The notes under the pieces: generated by a model
Databases searched by the model: none
Told to the model about the DNA's origin: nothing
The model's input: the letters and a program-made list of their open reading frames with translations, nothing else
UHGV virus genome: UHGV-0172001
Direction: 5' to 3' (one strand)
Source of the DNA: a virus
DNA length: 46,559 nt
Part shown: one piece after another, positions 13,510 through 22,037 of the stretch
Numbering within the stretch: the stretch's first letter is position 1
How the letters are laid out: each line of letters begins with the position of its first letter
Program-made: the position numbers and the translations under genes

Positions 13510-13716
13510 ATGCCACACAAACATAGGTTAGCCTCTTACGGACCGAAAGGTCAAGGAGAAGCAGGCTATGAAGCAGCAAAAGGCGATGTTAATCGCCCTG
13601 ATCGTCATCTGTTTAACCGTCATAGTGACGGCACTGGTAACGAGGAAAGACCTCTGCGAGGTACGAATCCGAACCGGCCAGACGGAGGTTGCTGTCTTCG
13701 TAGACTACGAATCTGA
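13510..13716 (+). CDS. mok-like overlapping reading frame of the hok locus
   Basis: 68-aa ORF overlapping nearly all of hok in another frame, as in hok/mok/sok loci. Confidence 0.45.
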   Translation: MPHKHRLASYGPKGQGEAGYEAAKGDVNRPDRHLFNRHSDGTGNEERPLRGTNPNRPDGGCCLRRLRI

Positions 13717-13723
13717 GAAGTAA
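13568..13723 (+). CDS. Hok/Gef-family type I toxin (HokD/RelF-like)
   Basis: MKQQKAMLIALIVICLTVIVTALVTRKDLCEVRIRTGQTEVAVF is near-identical to HokD as recalled; 51 aa; structured leader with a 10-bp stem at about 13395-13430. Confidence 0.9.
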   Translation: MKQQKAMLIALIVICLTVIVTALVTRKDLCEVRIRTGQTEVAVFVDYESEK

Positions 13724-14114: not shown

Positions 14115-14132
14115 TAATGGGTATTGTGCTCT

Positions 14133-14618
14133 ATGGCTGAGATTGTTGAAGGAGTGCACTATCTTTCGGTTGATGATCTTACTGAAATCAATCGCCTTTT
14201 AATTGAGCTTCAAACACCAGATGAACCTGTAGGTGTGCTGAGTGTTGATAATTTAAGTTCTTCTCAGGCCCGTCCCAGCATGGTTCGATGGTATGAACAG
14301 ACTAATGACATGTTTGTACTGGCATCGGTATTGATTGAAAGTCTGATTCAGAATCATCCGTTTGCTAATGCGAACAAACGAACAGCTATGATGGCTGGTT
14401 ACGTCTTCTTGTTGTTGAATGGCTATGAGTTAACAGCACCAGGCGATGAAATCGTTGAAATGGCAGAGGGACTGGCCTGCAAAACCTATACTCGAGAAGA
14501 TCTCGAGAACTGGTTGTGTTATTGGTCTCGCGCGTATGACAGCCGGGAATTATGTAAAACAGGCGCAACTATTGTTTTGTATGAAACTATCAAGCTTAAA
14601 ATAGAACAGCAAAACTAA
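14133..14618 (+). CDS. Fic/Doc-family (death-on-curing-like) protein
   Basis: HPFANANKRTAMMAG matches the Doc/Fic motif HxFx(D/N)(A/G)NKR. Confidence 0.8.
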   Translation: MAEIVEGVHYLSVDDLTEINRLLIELQTPDEPVGVLSVDNLSSSQARPSMVRWYEQTNDMFVLASVLIESLIQNHPFANANKRTAMMAGYVFLLLNGYELTAPGDEIVEMAEGLACKTYTREDLENWLCYWSRAYDSRELCKTGATIVLYETIKLKIEQQN

Positions 14619-15360: not shown

Positions 15361-16410
15361 GTGCGGGTATTGCTTCGACCTGTTCCGGTACCGGAACTTG
15401 GGCTGGTGGTGCTAAAACCGGGCCGTGAATCCATGCGGGTATTTCATAATCCTCGAGTACTGGTGGAGCCGGAACCGAAAAGCATGTGCAGTCTGCCGTC
15501 CGGAGTTGTTCCTGCCGTTCGCCAGCCGCTGGCGGAAGATAAATCATTGCTGCCATTTTTCAGCGACGAACGGGTGATTCGTGCTGCCGGCGGCGCTGGT
15601 GCACTGTCTGACTGGCTCCTGCGTCATGTTAAATCCTGCCAGTGGCCTCATGGTGACTACCATCACAGTGAAACCGTCATACATCGTTACGGTACCGGCG
15701 CGATGGTGTTGTGCTGGCACTGCGACAACCAGCTGCGGGACCAGACCTCAGAATCACTTGAGCAACTTGCTCAACAAAACCTGACAGCATGGATGATTGA
15801 CGTCATCCGTCACGCAATAAGCGGTGCGCAGGAGCGTGAATTATCGCTGGCTGAATTATCCTGGTGGGCTGTCTGCAATCAGGTGGCGGACGCACTACCG
15901 GAGGTAGTATTACGTCGTTCTCTGGGGTTACGTGCGGAAAAAATTCGCTCGGTGTACCGCGAAAGCGACATCATACCGGGAGAGCAGACAGCCACCAGCA
16001 TACTGAAGCAGCGCACAAAAAATATTGCGCTACCACCTCACGCCCACCAGCAACAGAACCCACCACAGGAAAAGACGGTGGTAAGCATTGCCGTTGATCC
16101 AGATTCTCCGGAATCTTTCATGAAGCGCCCTAAACGTCGCCGCTGGGTTAACGAGAAATACACGCGCTGGGTAAAGATGCAGCCGTGTGCGTGTTGTGGT
16201 AAGCCAGCCGACGATCCCCATCACCTGATTGGTCACGGTCAGGGAGGGATGGGAACAAAGGCCCACGATATTTTTACGCTACCGCTGTGCCGGGAGCATC
16301 ACAACGAACTTCATGCTGATCCGCTGGCATTTGAAGAAAAGCATGGTTCCCAGATTGATTTAATTTTTCGTTTTCTTGATCACGCCTTTGCAACCGGTGT
16401 GCTCGGGTAA
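15361..16410 (+). CDS. DUF968-type prophage protein with C-terminal HNH-like Cys/His cluster
   Basis: CACCGKPADDPHHLIGHGQGGMGTKAHDIFTLPLCREHHNELH; start uncertain (GTG 15361 or ATG 15433). Confidence 0.65.
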   Translation: MRVLLRPVPVPELGLVVLKPGRESMRVFHNPRVLVEPEPKSMCSLPSGVVPAVRQPLAEDKSLLPFFSDERVIRAAGGAGALSDWLLRHVKSCQWPHGDYHHSETVIHRYGTGAMVLCWHCDNQLRDQTSESLEQLAQQNLTAWMIDVIRHAISGAQERELSLAELSWWAVCNQVADALPEVVLRRSLGLRAEKIRSVYRESDIIPGEQTATSILKQRTKNIALPPHAHQQQNPPQEKTVVSIAVDPDSPESFMKRPKRRRWVNEKYTRWVKMQPCACCGKPADDPHHLIGHGQGGMGTKAHDIFTLPLCREHHNELHADPLAFEEKHGSQIDLIFRFLDHAFATGVLG

Positions 16411-16422
16411 AAGAGGTTACTG

Positions 16423-16797
16423 ATGCGTATAGAGTTTGTTTTGCCTTATCCGCCGACGGTGAACACCTACTGGCGTCGTCGTGGCAGCACATATTTTGTA
16501 TCAAAAGCCGGTGAGCGTTATCGCCGTGATGTGGCGCTTATTGTTCGCCAGCAGCGGCTGAAATCAAACCTGTCCGGAAGGCTGGCAATAAAAATTACTG
16601 CAGAGCCACCAGATAAGCGCCGTCGTGACCTGGACAATATTCTGAAAGCACCACTGGATGCGCTGACGCATGCGGGACTGCTTATCGATGACGAGCAGTT
16701 TGATGAAATTAATATTGTGCGCGGTCAGGTCGTTCCTGGTGGTCGGTTGGGCGTGAAGATTTACGAAATAATGCATGACGGGCAGGTCAAAAAATGA
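16423..16797 (+). CDS. rusA: Holliday junction resolvase RusA
   Basis: PDKRRRDLDNILKAPLDALTHAGLLIDDEQ parallels E. coli RusA [30 protein letters not shown]. Confidence 0.9.
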   Translation: MRIEFVLPYPPTVNTYWRRRGSTYFVSKAGERYRRDVALIVRQQRLKSNLSGRLAIKITAEPPDKRRRDLDNILKAPLDALTHAGLLIDDEQFDEINIVRGQVVPGGRLGVKIYEIMHDGQVKK

Positions 16798-17615
16798 AGC
16801 TGGAAGATTTACCGAAATACTATTCCCCGAAATCGCCAGGCCTGACTGATGCATCCGCCTCGACATCAAAAGATGCACTGAGTATCACTGATGTGATGGC
16901 TGCACAGGGCATGACACAGAACCGGGCTGAGATGGGATTTTCTGCGTTCCTGGGGAAAATGGGCATTAGTATGAACGACAGGGCGCGGGCAACAGAATTA
17001 CTGGCAGATTATGCATTAAGTCAGTGCGATCGCGTGGCGGCGTTAAGAAAACTTCCGGCAGAAATAAAACCGGCAGTGATGCGCATTATGGCTTCGTATG
17101 CTTTTGAGGATTATGCCCGCAGCGCAGCGAGTAAAAAGCAGTGCCCTTGTTGCCATGGGGAAAAATTTATTGAAAGCGAAGTTTTTACAAACAAGGTTCA
17201 GTATCCGGATGGTAAGCCGCCAGTATGGGCAAAGTGTACAAAAGGCGTGTATCCGTCTTACTGGGAAGAATGGAAAAAAATCCGGGAGGTGGTGAAAGTT
17301 TCCTGTCCTGAATGTAAAGGGAAGGGGGAGATCTCCACTGCCTGTAAAGACTGCCGTGGGCGTGGTGTTGCCATTCATCGTGAAGAGTCAGAAAAACGGG
17401 GTATGCCTGTTATCAGGGACTGCCGGCGTTGTGGCGGTCGTGGCCATGAAAGATTACCGTCAACGGAGGCATTTAATGCCATATGCAAAGTGACGAGTGC
17501 TATCACGCTTGATACATGGAAAAAATCAGTGAAACGCTTTTACGATACGTTGGTGGTTCGGTTTGACATTGAAGAGGCATGGGCAGAGCGGCAGTTAAAG
17601 AGGGTAACGCGATAG
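16794..17615 (+). CDS. Late-gene antiterminator Q (phage 82/933W-type)
   Basis: SPKSP, TDVMAAQGM, ASYAFEDYARSAA, multiple CxxC zinc knuckles, RFYDTLVV; followed by a promoter-like element and terminator. Confidence 0.85.
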   Translation: MKLEDLPKYYSPKSPGLTDASASTSKDALSITDVMAAQGMTQNRAEMGFSAFLGKMGISMNDRARATELLADYALSQCDRVAALRKLPAEIKPAVMRIMASYAFEDYARSAASKKQCPCCHGEKFIESEVFTNKVQYPDGKPPVWAKCTKGVYPSYWEEWKKIREVVKVSCPECKGKGEISTACKDCRGRGVAIHREESEKRGMPVIRDCRRCGGRGHERLPSTEAFNAICKVTSAITLDTWKKSVKRFYDTLVVRFDIEEAWAERQLKRVTR

Positions 17616-17620
17616 TGTTG

Positions 17621-17648
17621 TTGATTTTTCCCGAATCTGTGGTAAATT
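17621..17648 (+). promoter_or_regulatory. Candidate late promoter PR' (Q-modified)
   Basis: TTGATT (17621-17626), 16-bp spacer, TGgTAAATT extended -10 (17640-17648); immediately downstream of Q. Confidence 0.4.
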
Positions 17649-17696
17649 CGCCATAACGATGGGCTTTTTGTGCCTGACGTTAGCGTGATTTCTACA

Positions 17697-17720
17697 GCCC
17701 GCCAGCGAGCGGGTTTTTTG
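17697..17720 (+). terminator. tR'-like terminator downstream of the late promoter
   Basis: CCCGCCAGCGAGCGGG plus T6. Confidence 0.7.
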
Positions 17721-17880
17721 TTGTGATAGATAACAACTCCAGGTGGCATTCATTAGTGAATATTAGTTAATGTGTGCTGCCATGCGTTAAAAGATGTCAA
17801 TTCGTTATTGACCGATATCAAATTATGGAAAGATGAATATCATTACTATTGAAAATTCGTTGTTTCAATAGGTGATATTT

Positions 17881-18597
17881 ATGCATAAACTAATTAAGCT
17901 GTTTTCATTTTTTATTGCACTATCGATATCTCAGTGTTATGCCACTAGTAATGAATTCATAAGCGCCAGTAACAGTAGGGCATTTTCATTTTTTTTGCCT
18001 ACAGGGCAAGCAATGGCTATCCAGTATCTTGATGGACTTAAAAGATATTCAGCGAGCGAGATTATAGACGACTTCAATAATAATGAATTGAGAGCGAAGA
18101 AAAAGTATAAAGATGTATTCATCATAAACTCAACAGCGCGGGCGATTAAGCAAGACCTTGATGATAGGTTTTTTGTTCTGCTAAGGGATGGTAATAGTGG
18201 ATTTGAATCGTTTTATGCTTACTATGATAAGAAATCAGAAGGTGACTTAGAGTTTCTTAACGAAGGTGATAATGTGGAGTTTATTTGCTCCAATGTTAAA
18301 AACATCATTATGCCAAGAGCGGAATGTTTTTCTATCGCTTTAAATCTTGAATCTCAAAATATTCAGGGAAATCCTATAAGATTTTTTGATAATGCTTATA
18401 AGTTGCAAAACACTTATAAGGCTACAAAAATAACATTTATACTTTATTCTCTTCTGAAGGATAAAATTGAAAAGGACTGCGAAGAATCTATTGAAGCATG
18501 CAACCTAGCTGCCAGGAAGTTTACGGATAATGGCGCATTACTTGACTCCATGCTTGAACCTTATGCGGATATGTTAAGTAAAATCGGTAACAATTAA
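17881..18597 (+). CDS. AT-rich secreted protein of unknown function (moron)
   Basis: Signal-peptide-like MHKLIKLFSFFIALSISQCYA; markedly AT-rich coding sequence; own hairpin plus T run at 18610-18640; located between Q and lysis. Confidence 0.6.
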   Translation: MHKLIKLFSFFIALSISQCYATSNEFISASNSRAFSFFLPTGQAMAIQYLDGLKRYSASEIIDDFNNNELRAKKKYKDVFIINSTARAIKQDLDDRFFVLLRDGNSGFESFYAYYDKKSEGDLEFLNEGDNVEFICSNVKNIIMPRAECFSIALNLESQNIQGNPIRFFDNAYKLQNTYKATKITFILYSLLKDKIEKDCEESIEACNLAARKFTDNGALLDSMLEPYADMLSKIGNN

Positions 18598-18609
18598 CAA
18601 GGTTACATT

Positions 18610-18640
18610 CCAGCCATCCTGCCAGGGCTGCTTTTTTTTA
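18610..18640 (+). terminator. Terminator-like hairpin after the moron
   Basis: CAGCC-N10-GGCTG followed by T8. Confidence 0.5.
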
Positions 18641-18720
18641 CCTCATTTACATCTATTGCTTGCTGGCTTTTTCGACAAGAGTTATTGGTATGTCACGTTA
18701 ACCAGAAAAGGGAAAAAGAC

Positions 18721-18918
18721 ATGCTAAAACAGCAGGATATGACCGAAACCGCCAGAGTGGTGTTTAATGAGTTAAGCGTCAGCGAACCGGCGACCGTCGG
18801 GGAGATTGCACAGAATACTTACCTTTCACGCGAACGCTGCCAGTTAATACTGACCCAGCTTGTTATGGCGGGTCTGGCAGATTATCAGTTCGGTTGTTAC
18901 AGACGCCTTCCGCAGTGA
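18721..18918 (+). CDS. Hypothetical small protein
   Basis: ORF; start uncertain. Confidence 0.35.
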   Translation: MLKQQDMTETARVVFNELSVSEPATVGEIAQNTYLSRERCQLILTQLVMAGLADYQFGCYRRLPQ

Positions 18919-19068
18919 AGGCTTTTTAATTTGTGGTAATGGGCGGCTGGTGGGTGTTAGCGGCACCTGCCAGCCATCTGCTCATGCGTTGGGGTCACAA
19001 GCAAACCTCAGGCCCATCTGCTTTGCGCAAAAGCAGAATGAGCCTATCAGAGAAGTGCTTATTGATCT

Positions 19069-20115
19069 ATGGCTAATACTGTAAAAATATCCAGTTGTGA
19101 GTTAATCAACGCTGATTGCCTGGAATTTATCCAGACCTTACCGGAAAACTCTGTCGATCTGATAGTCACAGACCCGCCATACTTTAAAGTGAAGCCCGAA
19201 GGCTGGGATAACCAGTGGAAGGGTGACGATGATTATCTGAAATGGCTGGACCAGTGTCTGGCGCAATTCTGGCGGGTATTAAAGCCTGCCGGAAGTCTTT
19301 ACCTGTTCTGTGGTCATCGCCTGGCATCTGATATCGAAATCATGATGCGTGAACGCTTTAATGTGCTGAACCACATTATCTGGGCGAAGCCGTCCGGGCG
19401 CTGGAACGGGTGCAACAAGGAAAGCCTGCGGGCGTATTTTCCGGCAACAGAACGCATTCTGTTTGCTGAACATTATCAGGGGCCATACCAGCCCAAAAAT
19501 GACGGCTATGCGGCAAAGGGGCGCGAGCTAAAACAGCACGTCATGGCCCCGCTGATTTCTTACTTTCGTGATGCGCGTGAATTACTGGGAATAACGTCAA
19601 AACAGATAGCGGAAGCCACCGGAAAGAAAAACATGGCTTCGCACTGGTTTGGCACCAGTCAGTGGCAGTTGCCGAACGAAGGCGATTATCTGAAATTACA
19701 GGCGTTGTTTGCGCGTGTTGCAGCAGAAAAACATCAGCGCGGTGAACTGGAAAAGCCACACCACCAGCTGGTCAGCACATACAGTGAACTGAACCGGCAA
19801 TATGCCAGTCTGCTGGAGGAGTACAAATCCCTGCGGCGTTATTTTTCCGTATCGGCTGCCGTTCCGTATACGGATGTCTGGACGCACAAGCCTGTGCAGT
19901 ATTACCCCGGCAAACATCCCTGTGAGAAACCGGCGGATATGTTGCGTCAGATAATTACCGCCAGCAGCCATCCGGGAGATTTGGTCGCTGATTTTTTTAT
20001 GGGGTCGGGGTCAACAATAAAAGCAGCATTATCGCTGGGAAGGCGTGCAATAGGTGTGGAACTGGAAGAAGAGAGATTTAACCAGACTGTAATTGAAATA
20101 AAAAATAATCGTTAA
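19069..20115 (+). CDS. DNA N6-adenine/N4-cytosine methyltransferase, beta class, orphan
   Basis: Motif IV DPPY near the N-terminus (LIVTDPPYF) and motif I FxGxG near the C-terminus (DFFMGSGST); no adjacent restriction gene. Confidence 0.9.
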   Translation: MANTVKISSCELINADCLEFIQTLPENSVDLIVTDPPYFKVKPEGWDNQWKGDDDYLKWLDQCLAQFWRVLKPAGSLYLFCGHRLASDIEIMMRERFNVLNHIIWAKPSGRWNGCNKESLRAYFPATERILFAEHYQGPYQPKNDGYAAKGRELKQHVMAPLISYFRDARELLGITSKQIAEATGKKNMASHWFGTSQWQLPNEGDYLKLQALFARVAAEKHQRGELEKPHHQLVSTYSELNRQYASLLEEYKSLRRYFSVSAAVPYTDVWTHKPVQYYPGKHPCEKPADMLRQIITASSHPGDLVADFFMGSGSTIKAALSLGRRAIGVELEEERFNQTVIEIKNNR

Positions 20116-20284: not shown

Positions 20285-20360
<76 letters not shown>

Positions 20361-20363
20361 TAT

Positions 20364-20439
<76 letters not shown>

Positions 20440-20801
20440 CATTTGAAATAAGCCTTATTGTATTGCAGCACTGGCGTATTTTTTATTACGTGGGAGCAGG
20501 TTGTTTTGAAAAAGCATTCTGTTCTCTGGCTATGATTTGAGGCCAGGTTAGCCTCAGTGCTGATTTTTCTGCGACAGCAGAATGGTGCATTGCTGGTGGA
20601 GATTTTGTATTTCCTGGCAGGGTCGGTGATGCATCATTCTGGTGTTGTAAATAACACCACCGGGGTGTTCCTCAGAGCGAGGGTGGTTAAAAGAGTCGGT
20701 TTAACGGGAAATCACAGTATTCATACAGGACGGAATACTTCGGGAGGCACCCGACACCTCGGTTTTATTACAATTAAGAATGTATTTCTTGCATTGACCA
20801 A

Positions 20802-20827
20802 CCGCCGTATCCGGCGGTTTTTTTTAT
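20802..20827 (+). terminator. Rho-independent terminator
   Basis: CCGCCG-tat-CCGGCGG plus T10. Confidence 0.7.
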
Positions 20828-20957
20828 TCAGAATCTCGTTTCTTTATGGTTCGCTGCGGCGGGCCTTTTTTATATCTGCGTTTCACTCAACGTGTATTGA
20901 ATCTGAATACATCACATAAAAGACATCGGTGGATGCCTTCGACGGGGTGTTTTATTA

Positions 20958-20981
20958 CGGGCCGCTGGCGGCCCTTTTTTA
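20958..20981 (+). terminator. Rho-independent terminator just upstream of the lysis genes
   Basis: GGGCCGC-tg-GCGGCCC plus T6. Confidence 0.7.
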
Positions 20982-20999
20982 TTTACAGGAGAAAAAAGT

Positions 21000-21392
21000 A
21001 TGTCTGAACCCTTGTCCGGTTCCGGCACGGCTGCGGCGCTCGGTGGGGCGACGGTATTCGGGCTGTTTACCGGAACGGATTTCGGGATTGTGTTTGGTGC
21101 GTTCGCCGGGGCGTTATTTGTGGCAACGATGCCGCAGGCGCTTTCAGCCTGGCGTGTGGCGGCGCATTTTCTGGTGTCGTTCATTATCGGCGTGCTGGGC
21201 GCAGAGGTTCTGGCATCCTGGCTGGTAAAGCATACAGGGTTTGACGGTGCACCTGTTGACGCACTGTGTGCAGTACTGGTGTCAGTGGTGTCGGTGAAGA
21301 TTCTGTCATTCATCCACCAGCAGGATATTGCATCACTGGTGTCCGGCCTGTTCTCCCGTCTGCGTGGCGGAGGAGGCGGCAATGTTAAGTAA
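21000..21392 (+). CDS. Putative holin (multi-TM lysis protein)
   Basis: Three to four hydrophobic helices, charged C-terminus; first gene of the lysis cluster after SD CAGGAGAAAAAAG. Confidence 0.5.
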   Translation: MSEPLSGSGTAAALGGATVFGLFTGTDFGIVFGAFAGALFVATMPQALSAWRVAAHFLVSFIIGVLGAEVLASWLVKHTGFDGAPVDALCAVLVSVVSVKILSFIHQQDIASLVSGLFSRLRGGGGGNVK

Positions 21393-21657
21393 CCTTCCCG
21401 GATTACTGAATGTGGCGTTATGCACGGTTATCGTGCTGACGCTCTTTTTTTATCGTCGCCGTGATTCCAGACATAAACCGCTGATGTCATGGCTGGCCTG
21501 GCTGCTGATGCTGCTGTATGCCTTTGCGCCCCTCAGCTATCTGTGTGGTCGCCCGTTAGCAACGGGCTGGCTGGAAGTGTTTTTTAACCTGCTGTTCTGC
21601 GTGCTGGTGATACGCGCACGCGGGAACGTCACAAAAATCTTTCCATTGTTGAGGTGA
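21382..21657 (+). CDS. Second small membrane protein of the lysis cassette (holin/antiholin-like)
   Basis: ATG 21382 after GGAGGAGGCGGC; two to three TM helices; overlaps the holin 3' end. Confidence 0.45.
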   Translation: MLSNLPGLLNVALCTVIVLTLFFYRRRDSRHKPLMSWLAWLLMLLYAFAPLSYLCGRPLATGWLEVFFNLLFCVLVIRARGNVTKIFPLLR

Positions 21658-21659
21658 AT

Positions 21660-22037
21660 ATGTCGGGTAAATTCAGATTTAGTCGTCGCAGCGAAAAGAA
21701 TCTGGAGGGCGTTAAACCACAGCTGGTTGCTGTCGTTCGCCGTGCGCTGGAGCTGACGGAGGTTGATTTCGGTATTACGGAAGGCCTGCGCAGTAAGTAT
21801 CGCCAGAAACAGCTGGTCGCGGAAGGGAAAAGCCAGACCATGAACAGCCGCCACCTGACCGGTGATGCGGTGGATGTTGTGGCCTACATTGGCAGCCAGG
21901 TGTCATGGGACTGGCCTCTGTACGAGAAAATCGCGCAGGCATTTAAGCAGGCTGCTGCAGAGCTGGGGACTGCCATCGAATGGGGCGGGGACTGGAAAAC
22001 ACTGAAAGACGGGCCTCACTTTCAGTTGAAACGCTGA
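21660..22037 (+). CDS. Endolysin, peptidase M15 family (L-alanyl-D-glutamate peptidase type)
   Basis: About 125 aa; VRRALELTEVDFGITEGLRS...SRHLTGDAVDV...GGDW pattern of small VanY/M15 phage endolysins (His/Asp zinc ligands). Confidence 0.75.
   Translation: MSGKFRFSRRSEKNLEGVKPQLVAVVRRALELTEVDFGITEGLRSKYRQKQLVAEGKSQTMNSRHLTGDAVDVVAYIGSQVSWDWPLYEKIAQAFKQAAAELGTAIEWGGDWKTLKDGPHFQLKR

Follow-up and report, generated by a model that had tools for sequence, protein, structure and literature searches.

Superinfection exclusion by a prophage-encoded protein with an OB domain has been described for Sie2009 of Lactococcus phage Tuc2009, which is reported to prevent DNA injection (PMC7693887, PMC10883804); the working mode of Sie2009-type proteins is still called unknown (PMC10883804). 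A PF12869-like OB domain is also found in TcdC of Clostridioides difficile (PMC3575817), where this domain is exposed outside the cell (bioRxiv 10.1101/872283). The solved structure 3f1z, a Klebsiella pneumoniae "putative nucleic acid-binding lipoprotein" from structural genomics, is a further relative, for which we found no report of a function. Here, we describe a gene for a divergent protein of this kind in the 46,559-nucleotide virus genome UHGV-0172001 (the window), which is an Escherichia coli prophage. The gene, an open reading frame (ORF) at 17881-18597 on the + strand, is the only gene of an AT-rich cassette lying directly after tR', the terminator downstream of the late antiterminator gene Q.

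The window gene shares several properties with stx and subAB and with bor and lom: it is an AT-rich extra gene of the late region downstream of Q, its product is predicted to be exported, and it is absent from close relatives. It differs from stx and subAB in that these occupy another slot in the nearest relatives and in that its product has no toxin-like fold. It is also unlike bor and lom, the classical morons, which have a promoter of their own, since no clear promoter was found for it. TcdC is set apart, by its description, as a membrane-anchored, dimeric protein of a Gram-positive bacterium with a debated role in toxin regulation and without the C-terminal helical domain present here. Similarly, 3f1z is a lipoprotein of only 15–17% identity that lacks this domain.

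The AT-Rich Cassette Directly after tR'

Comparison by BLAST with six related prophage loci places the left breakpoint of the cassette at 17723/17724, immediately behind the T-run of tR', and the right one at 18657/18658. The 934 bp between them (17724..18657, + strand) stand, by BLAST and inspection against loci L002–L006 of our set, in place of a 57-bp spacer of empty alleles. In one empty allele (L005), which has the same Q gene and no cargo, this spacer links tR' to the conserved right flank, and the same arrangement without a cassette is seen in the Stx2a phage Stx2_EH2201 (L004). The empty-allele prophages have the Q gene, a 65-residue gene, and a methylase in common with the window. In a sample of 60 records spread over 2,269 matching E. 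coli genomes, the segment that spans 2,201 bp in the window is about 1,320 bp long in those that share both flanks, which corresponds to an empty slot; the exception is one cassette carrier. The right flank itself (18658-19100) is about 97% identical at the nucleotide level in phiP27 and several prophages, with cargo present or not.

The cassette is carried by 8 of 5,426 complete E. coli genomes. Carriers SC407 and PSJ-22 have 92% nucleotide identity to it, and six Shiga toxin-producing E. coli (STEC) from goat or mutton have 79%; the latter have another Q type with an identical left junction. Three further contigs with the cassette are present in IMG/VR, and a tblastn search of 50,697 phage records found the gene in no sequenced phage isolate. 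In Salmonella, a homologue with 71% amino acid identity lies in the conserved order Q, OB gene, small gene, methylase, and holin. The first-pass annotation of the window had proposed that the gene was acquired horizontally, and the empty alleles and the rarity of the cassette bear this out: to judge by these comparisons, the 934-bp cassette is horizontally acquired cargo.

The ORF is intact and encodes 238 residues. It starts with ATG preceded by a good Shine–Dalgarno sequence (AGGTGA, 17870-17875), and the homologues all begin at the same Met. Its GC content is 0.342 (0.318 at third codon positions), against a window mean of 0.498 and values of 0.49–0.54 in the flanking genes, so the low GC content claimed earlier holds on quantitative analysis; among 717-nt stretches of the window, it has the lowest GC content (z = -3.4; 0.3% of windows lower). 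The ratio dN/dS is 0.15–0.29 against homologous copies of 64–99% amino acid identity, which indicates purifying selection on a real coding gene, and full length is retained in E. coli and Salmonella. In SC407, the copy (L001, 6278-7010) has a frameshift that follows about residue 169, and its annotation is that of a 169-residue "OB-fold protein"; at least one carrier is losing the gene.

The Encoded Protein and Its Predicted Structure

By hydropathy and the -3/-1 rule, residues 1-21 (17881..17943, + strand) form a signal peptide of the n-h-c type, as had been claimed. The n-region is MHKLIK, the h-region LFSFFIALSIS (11 residues), and the c-region ends in QCYA, with cleavage predicted between this and TS. 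This is the sole strongly hydrophobic segment of the protein. An OB-fold domain of the PF12869 type follows at residues ~53-150 (18037..18330, + strand), with the conserved cysteines C136 and C149. The remainder, residues 151-238 plus the stop codon (18331..18597, + strand), is, from the secondary structure of an AlphaFold2 model, a C-terminal helical domain with a CX6C motif (C200, C207).

The window protein alone matches PF12869, the tRNA_anti-like OB fold, with 19.6 bits (E 6.9e-4), where the Pfam gathering cut-off is 23.5 bits. Its homologues P0002–P0008 have precomputed PF12869 matches, all 53 members of the family alignment A2 match PF12869 at E ≤ 0.01, and the name given to the homologues by PGAP is "OB-fold protein". 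By transitive homology, then, the window protein is a divergent member of PF12869, and the earlier statement that it has no recognisable domain has to be corrected.

Structure prediction is in agreement with this assignment. With the 53-sequence alignment as input, AlphaFold2 gave a confident model (predicted local distance difference test score, pLDDT, 80.6; with nine close homologues alone, 36.4) in which the signal helix is followed by a further helix (32-51), the OB barrel (~54-150), and the C-terminal domain (152-237), which is helical. The predicted fold, a five-stranded OB barrel after a helix, is like that of 3f1z. In the model, C136 and C149 are in adjacent strands of a hairpin, and C200 and C207 flank a helix–helix turn. 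Two disulfides, C136–C149 and C200–C207, are therefore plausible on the model. The cleaved mature protein would be a soluble, periplasmic, acidic protein of ~24.7 kDa with a pI of 4.9. For the C-terminal domain, no Pfam family was found, and the best match of a profile of this domain among PDB sequences had an E value of 0.92. The whole protein is without a match in NCBIfam.

Relationship to Sie2009

The phrog_8545 family, labelled "superinfection exclusion Sie-like", is matched by 48 of the 53 family members. This label stems from orf2 of phage Tuc2009, which is Sie2009. Sie2009 itself matches phrog_8545 with an E value of 1.7e-79 and is a member of PF12869 (43.3 bits). In hhalign, the family profile A2 aligned to the Sie2009 ectodomain over 92 columns with 97% probability (E 7.8e-11), whereas the SSB control gave 0.1%; the alignment spans a shared ...N..A..KYKGK... 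motif. We conclude from these profiles that the OB domain of the family is homologous to the surface-exposed domain of Sie2009.

Like the window protein, Sie2009 is prophage-encoded and has an OB domain of the PF12869 type; it is also extracytoplasmic, as is predicted for the window protein. The latter departs from it in a predicted signal peptide of the cleavable type, in 88 residues that form an additional domain, in its Gram-negative host, and in the position of its gene in the late operon. Sie2009 is also the only PF12869-family member with a tested phenotype that we found, and our literature search found no functionally characterised Gram-negative protein with this OB domain. By homology, the window protein belongs, as a divergent Gram-negative variant, to a domain family in which the single characterised phage member is a superinfection-exclusion protein.

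The Wider Family

The window protein matches phrog_13333, a family of unknown function, with an E value of 8.2e-9, and its relatives match over their full length, with E values down to 4.6e-58 and a best value of 2.5e-80. All 53 members of the alignment match this family. When 1.84 billion cluster representatives were searched with a profile, one close cluster, one 225-residue relative (E 3.7e-45), and about 200 proteins with the OB domain were returned; many of these proteins have 240–290 residues and could be aligned for the greater part of the sequence. The proteins of E. coli and Salmonella form a small and divergent branch of the family, with only two of the 1.84 billion representatives at E ≤ 1e-30. 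In the 53-sequence alignment, N68, C136, and C149 are invariant, and C200/C207 are present in 52 sequences. An N-terminal hydrophobic segment occurs in 51 of the 53 members; in at least 13, a lipobox-like motif takes the place of a signal peptide. Other proteins of phrog_13333, called "OB-fold protein" by PGAP, resemble the window protein in having a signal peptide or lipobox, an OB domain, and a four-cysteine helical domain. Named members come from Pectobacterium, Serratia, Yersinia pseudotuberculosis, and Klebsiella oxytoca.

The genomic context was inspected for nine distant members. Eight are prophage-borne, in several genera, and one is chromosomal, adjoining a GGDEF gene. Seven of the nine belong to the tail modules of myovirus prophages of the E217-like type, where they take up four positions (four at Baseplate_J-wedge, one after Pam3_gp18, one at E217_GP41-hub, and one after the tail fibre), unlike the window subgroup, which follows Q and tR'. 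Another of the nine is flanked by a Q gene and the small terminase gene and is encoded on the opposite strand. The measured copies all have 30–39% GC, with an upstream flank of 49–52% GC in seven of the nine loci; a contrast between gene and flank is present wherever the flanks are not AT-rich themselves. Taken together, these contexts identify the phrog_13333 family as a recurrent AT-rich cargo of temperate phages of the Enterobacterales. A pattern search built from an intermediate alignment and run on genome contigs gave 47 pattern matches, none of which was confirmed. In the literature, we found no functional study of this family or of any OB-fold moron.

A separate observation concerns the Baseplate_J-wedge site. 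In four loci, L012, L014, L015, and L017, from Serratia, Pectobacterium, Yersinia, and Klebsiella prophages, the gene (7001 to ~7800) occupies this same site and has an N-terminal signal-like segment. Such a constant position in four genera is unusual for an AT-rich cargo gene.

Cargo Slots in Related Late Regions

The first-pass annotation had compared the position of the gene with that of stx in lambdoid phages. The gene does lie downstream of Q and tR' and upstream of the holins and endolysin (21000-22037), as had been stated, but the analogy is loose, because stx and subAB of the closest relatives come after the methylase and the tRNAs. The cassette is positioned directly after tR', before the 65-residue gene and the methylase; in phiP27-like late regions, stx2e (phiP27), stx2a, stx2g, and subAB are found about 2.3 kb beyond this slot, immediately before the late genes that follow. 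In the relatives, the post-tRNA slot holds one of these toxin genes or TerB plus DUF3927. The equivalent of this toxin slot in the window (20439-20999, ~560 bp) contains no ORF with a family match; terminator-like hairpins can be seen there by eye.

The sole other occupant of the post-tR' slot that we found is a gene for 237 residues in the Stx2g prophage of E. coli MFDS1022581 (L006, 3262-3975). It has 38% GC and lies behind the same Q type. By eye, its product has several hydrophobic segments that resemble membrane-spanning ones. It has no Pfam or PADLOC match and no sequence similarity to the 238-residue window protein.

A third slot is situated between Q and pR'/tR'. It holds L22 in phiP27 and an ORF6N gene in STEC005. 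L22 (L003, 3618-4847), annotated as "unknown", has a T5orf172 domain and matches PD-Lambda-1 of PADLOC with an E value of 2.1e-89. The idea that L22 would make the post-tR' slot a defence hotspot was rejected, as the alignment puts both L22 and the ORF6N gene between Q and pR'/tR'.

Possible Function of the Protein

What, then, could be the role of this protein? The explanation that we favour, and hold tentatively, is that an acquired cassette after tR' encodes an exported OB-fold protein that excludes superinfecting phages at the level of the envelope. The prophage is a lambdoid one next to potC, and since the cassette lies directly after tR', its single gene would be the first gene of the Q-dependent late transcript. 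After induction, Q-modified RNA polymerase from pR' would pass tR' and transcribe the gene. The product would be exported by the Sec pathway with cleavage of the signal peptide, and the mature protein would be made up of the PF12869 OB-fold domain and the helical domain, probably with two disulfides. It would then act at the cell envelope, hindering the entry of superinfecting phages. Production would occur mainly via Q antitermination after induction, perhaps with a low level in the lysogen. The boost on induction that had been suggested for the gene may soundly be expected, because Q-antiterminated transcription must cross a cassette that is just 3' of tR'.

An envelope role against superinfecting phages seems the most likely one because the OB domain is homologous to that of the injection-blocking Sie2009. 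Two further observations were counted in favour of exclusion: a match in BFVD has the same OB domain fused to an Ltp-type "host cell surface-exposed lipoprotein", and the other post-tR' occupant has the membrane-spanning-like segments described above. The gene is, on this homology, a plausible phage-resistance gene rather than a toxin gene.

Several points weigh against exclusion. At the level of homology, the window protein by itself is under the PF12869 cut-off (19.6 versus 23.5 bits) and matches phrog_8545 with an E value of only 0.1. Since the close-family profile A1 alone is not significant against Sie2009, the link between the two proteins is transitive, via more distant relatives. PF12869 itself is a broad domain family, and the functions of its members are mostly unknown; sharing the domain therefore does not fix the function. 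PADLOC-DB 2.0 contained no family matching the window protein at E ≤ 0.1. Sie2009 is also a different protein in its architecture: it has 173 residues, is anchored in the membrane through an N-terminal helix that is not cleaved off (20 hydrophobic residues after a basic N-terminus), and is without the C-terminal helical domain and the conserved cysteines. Its gene is between the integrase and repressor genes, in the lysogeny module of a Gram-positive phage. Finally, classical exclusion needs expression in the lysogen, while no convincing promoter of its own was found for the window gene.

It is tempting to go further and propose a Gram-negative counterpart of Sie2009 that would be a soluble, disulfide-bonded periplasmic OB-fold protein intercepting the DNA or ejection proteins of an incoming phage and produced chiefly as the first product of the Q-dependent late transcript. 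Exclusion would then be late and coupled to induction, protecting the producer or its progeny instead of being maintained in the lysogen, and the module would be shuffled among lambdoid and myovirus prophages of the Enterobacterales. We consider this detailed version a long shot. The finding as a whole is a candidate and not an established discovery. If the family does exclude phages, the window protein would serve as a model that is tractable in E. coli and has a confidently predicted structure, the post-tR' segment would be a second cargo slot of Stx-phage-like late regions, and a common unannotated class of proteins would join the repertoire of prophage-encoded resistance.

The alternative that survives best, although we find it unlikely, is that the protein binds a ligand or protects against stress in the periplasm, like other periplasmic OB-fold proteins, and contributes to the fitness of the lysogen in a way unrelated to phages. 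The closest solved structure, 3f1z, is an uncharacterised Klebsiella lipoprotein, and the distant member next to a GGDEF gene is chromosomal, both in keeping with such a role. However, the other eight distant members and all the close ones are prophage-borne, the gene is very rare in E. coli, and the one phenotype-tested member of the domain family that we found is an exclusion protein.

More doubtful is a host-interaction or virulence factor following the logic of stx, that is, a product of the late transcript that folds in the periplasm and leaves the cell at phage lysis, with eukaryotic cells or competitors as its targets. The gene does precede the lysis genes within the Q-dependent late operon, related late regions bear stx or subAB, and six carriers are STEC from goat or mutton. 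In addition, the protein has a signal peptide and conserved cysteines, as Stx subunits do. On the other hand, the toxins of the closest relatives use the other slot, and no similarity in sequence or fold to toxin families, including AB5 subunits, was found, with generic OB-fold matches only. Because distant members are prophage cargo in Pectobacterium, Serratia, Yersinia, and Klebsiella, which include plant-associated and environmental genera, a role specific to mammals is not suggested. If lysis nevertheless released the protein to act on other cells, this would add a new factor, coupled to induction, to a backbone common to Stx and SubAB phages.

The protein might also serve the lytic cycle as a helper made only late, which would tune the timing of lysis, sense superinfection, or keep progeny off debris. 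We regard this as improbable. It would suit the first gene after tR', the failure to find a promoter of its own, and the myovirus relatives, which are inside co-directional tail operons with short intergenic gaps. Nevertheless, the position varies among phages with no tie to the lysis genes, and one family member is encoded against the direction of the late genes. Moreover, the gene must be dispensable, because it is missing from the related prophages of the sample that have this Q gene and methylase. That the ORF is non-functional, arising by chance in AT-rich DNA or decaying, is very improbable: the frameshift in SC407 would fit, but purifying selection, the retention of full length in two genera, the conserved cysteines and OB motif, and the confident model all argue against it.

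Transcription Signals and Leader

In lambdoid and Stx phages, pR' is always active, and, without Q, transcription ends at tR' (PMC7547250). The order Q, pR', tR' in the window is the usual lambdoid layout. The candidate late promoter pR' (TTGATT-16 nt-TGgTAAATT, 17621..17648, + strand) is the top sigma-70-like match in our scan of 17600-17900 and is kept in prophages with the same Q gene; its function as a late promoter would follow from its position. A tR'-like intrinsic terminator (CCCGC-loop-GCGGG plus T6, 17696..17723, + strand) was detected by a terminator scan and folding and is conserved in L002, L005, and L006. In passing, we note that transcription from pR' to tR' (17621-17723) would yield a short constitutive RNA of ~70 nt, analogous to the StxS RNA of Stx phages (PMC7547250). 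A search of 17550-18750 found no known Rfam family, the sole match (E 0.66) being due to chance.

Is the gene a moron? In the strict sense, a moron has its own promoter and its own terminator. The earlier proposal that this gene is one is right in that it is absent from similar phages and deviates in composition, but no convincing promoter was found and the terminator is weak. A consensus sigma-70 scan gave no + strand site in the cassette. The best relaxed candidate, ATATCA-17-TATCAT at 17815-17843, is weak, and in our reading of alignment A4, its -10 element is not kept in Salmonella. The terminator-like hairpin that had been noted downstream of the gene is present; its 5-bp stem encloses a 10-nt loop (18611-18630), and U8 comes after it (18632-18639, + strand). 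Nevertheless, it is weak: its fold energy of -9.3 kcal/mol is no better than that of shuffled sequences (z = -1.1), and the terminator scan did not report it. The downstream hairpin of the STEC005 copy, judged by eye and not folded, appears stronger.

The leader contains a 9-bp perfect inverted repeat, CTATTGAAA/TTTCAATAG, with an 8-nt loop (17846..17871, + strand), which was found by a repeat search and touches the Shine–Dalgarno sequence. It is kept in the E. coli copies; in Salmonella, a different short hairpin is possible there, as read from A4. The repeat may affect translation as a hairpin or bind a regulator as an operator. The motif AATTCGTT(A/G)TT is present twice within 17799-17864, 55 nt apart, and could likewise be an operator or a translational hairpin.

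Surrounding Genes

At its left end, the window matches the potC region of several E. coli chromosomes with 100% identity, and an integrase gene follows. Upstream of the cassette are a DUF968 gene (15361-16410), a RusA gene (16423-16797), and the Q gene (16794..17615, + strand), whose 273-residue product matches PF03589 (Antiterm, E 1.7e-49) and has homologues called "antitermination protein" by PGAP. The signal-peptide ORF is then the first gene after tR'. Outside the cassette, the 65-residue winged-helix-like gene (18721..18918, + strand; phrog_331, E 3.5e-37) marks the right flank. After it come, as context, an N6/N4 DNA methyltransferase gene (19069..20115, + strand; PF01555, E 5e-45; MTase_II of PADLOC, E 2.9e-153), genes for tRNA-Thr and tRNA-Gly (20285-20438), two holin genes (21000-21392 and 21382-21657), and an M15 endolysin gene (21654-22037).

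Two other ORFs lie further upstream, before DUF968, RusA, and Q, in a stretch of lower GC content (0.42–0.44): a Hok/Gef toxin ORF (13568-13723; PF01848, E 4.3e-23) and a Fic/Doc ORF (14124-14618; PF02661, E 8.6e-12). These resemble additional accessory cargo of the prophage.

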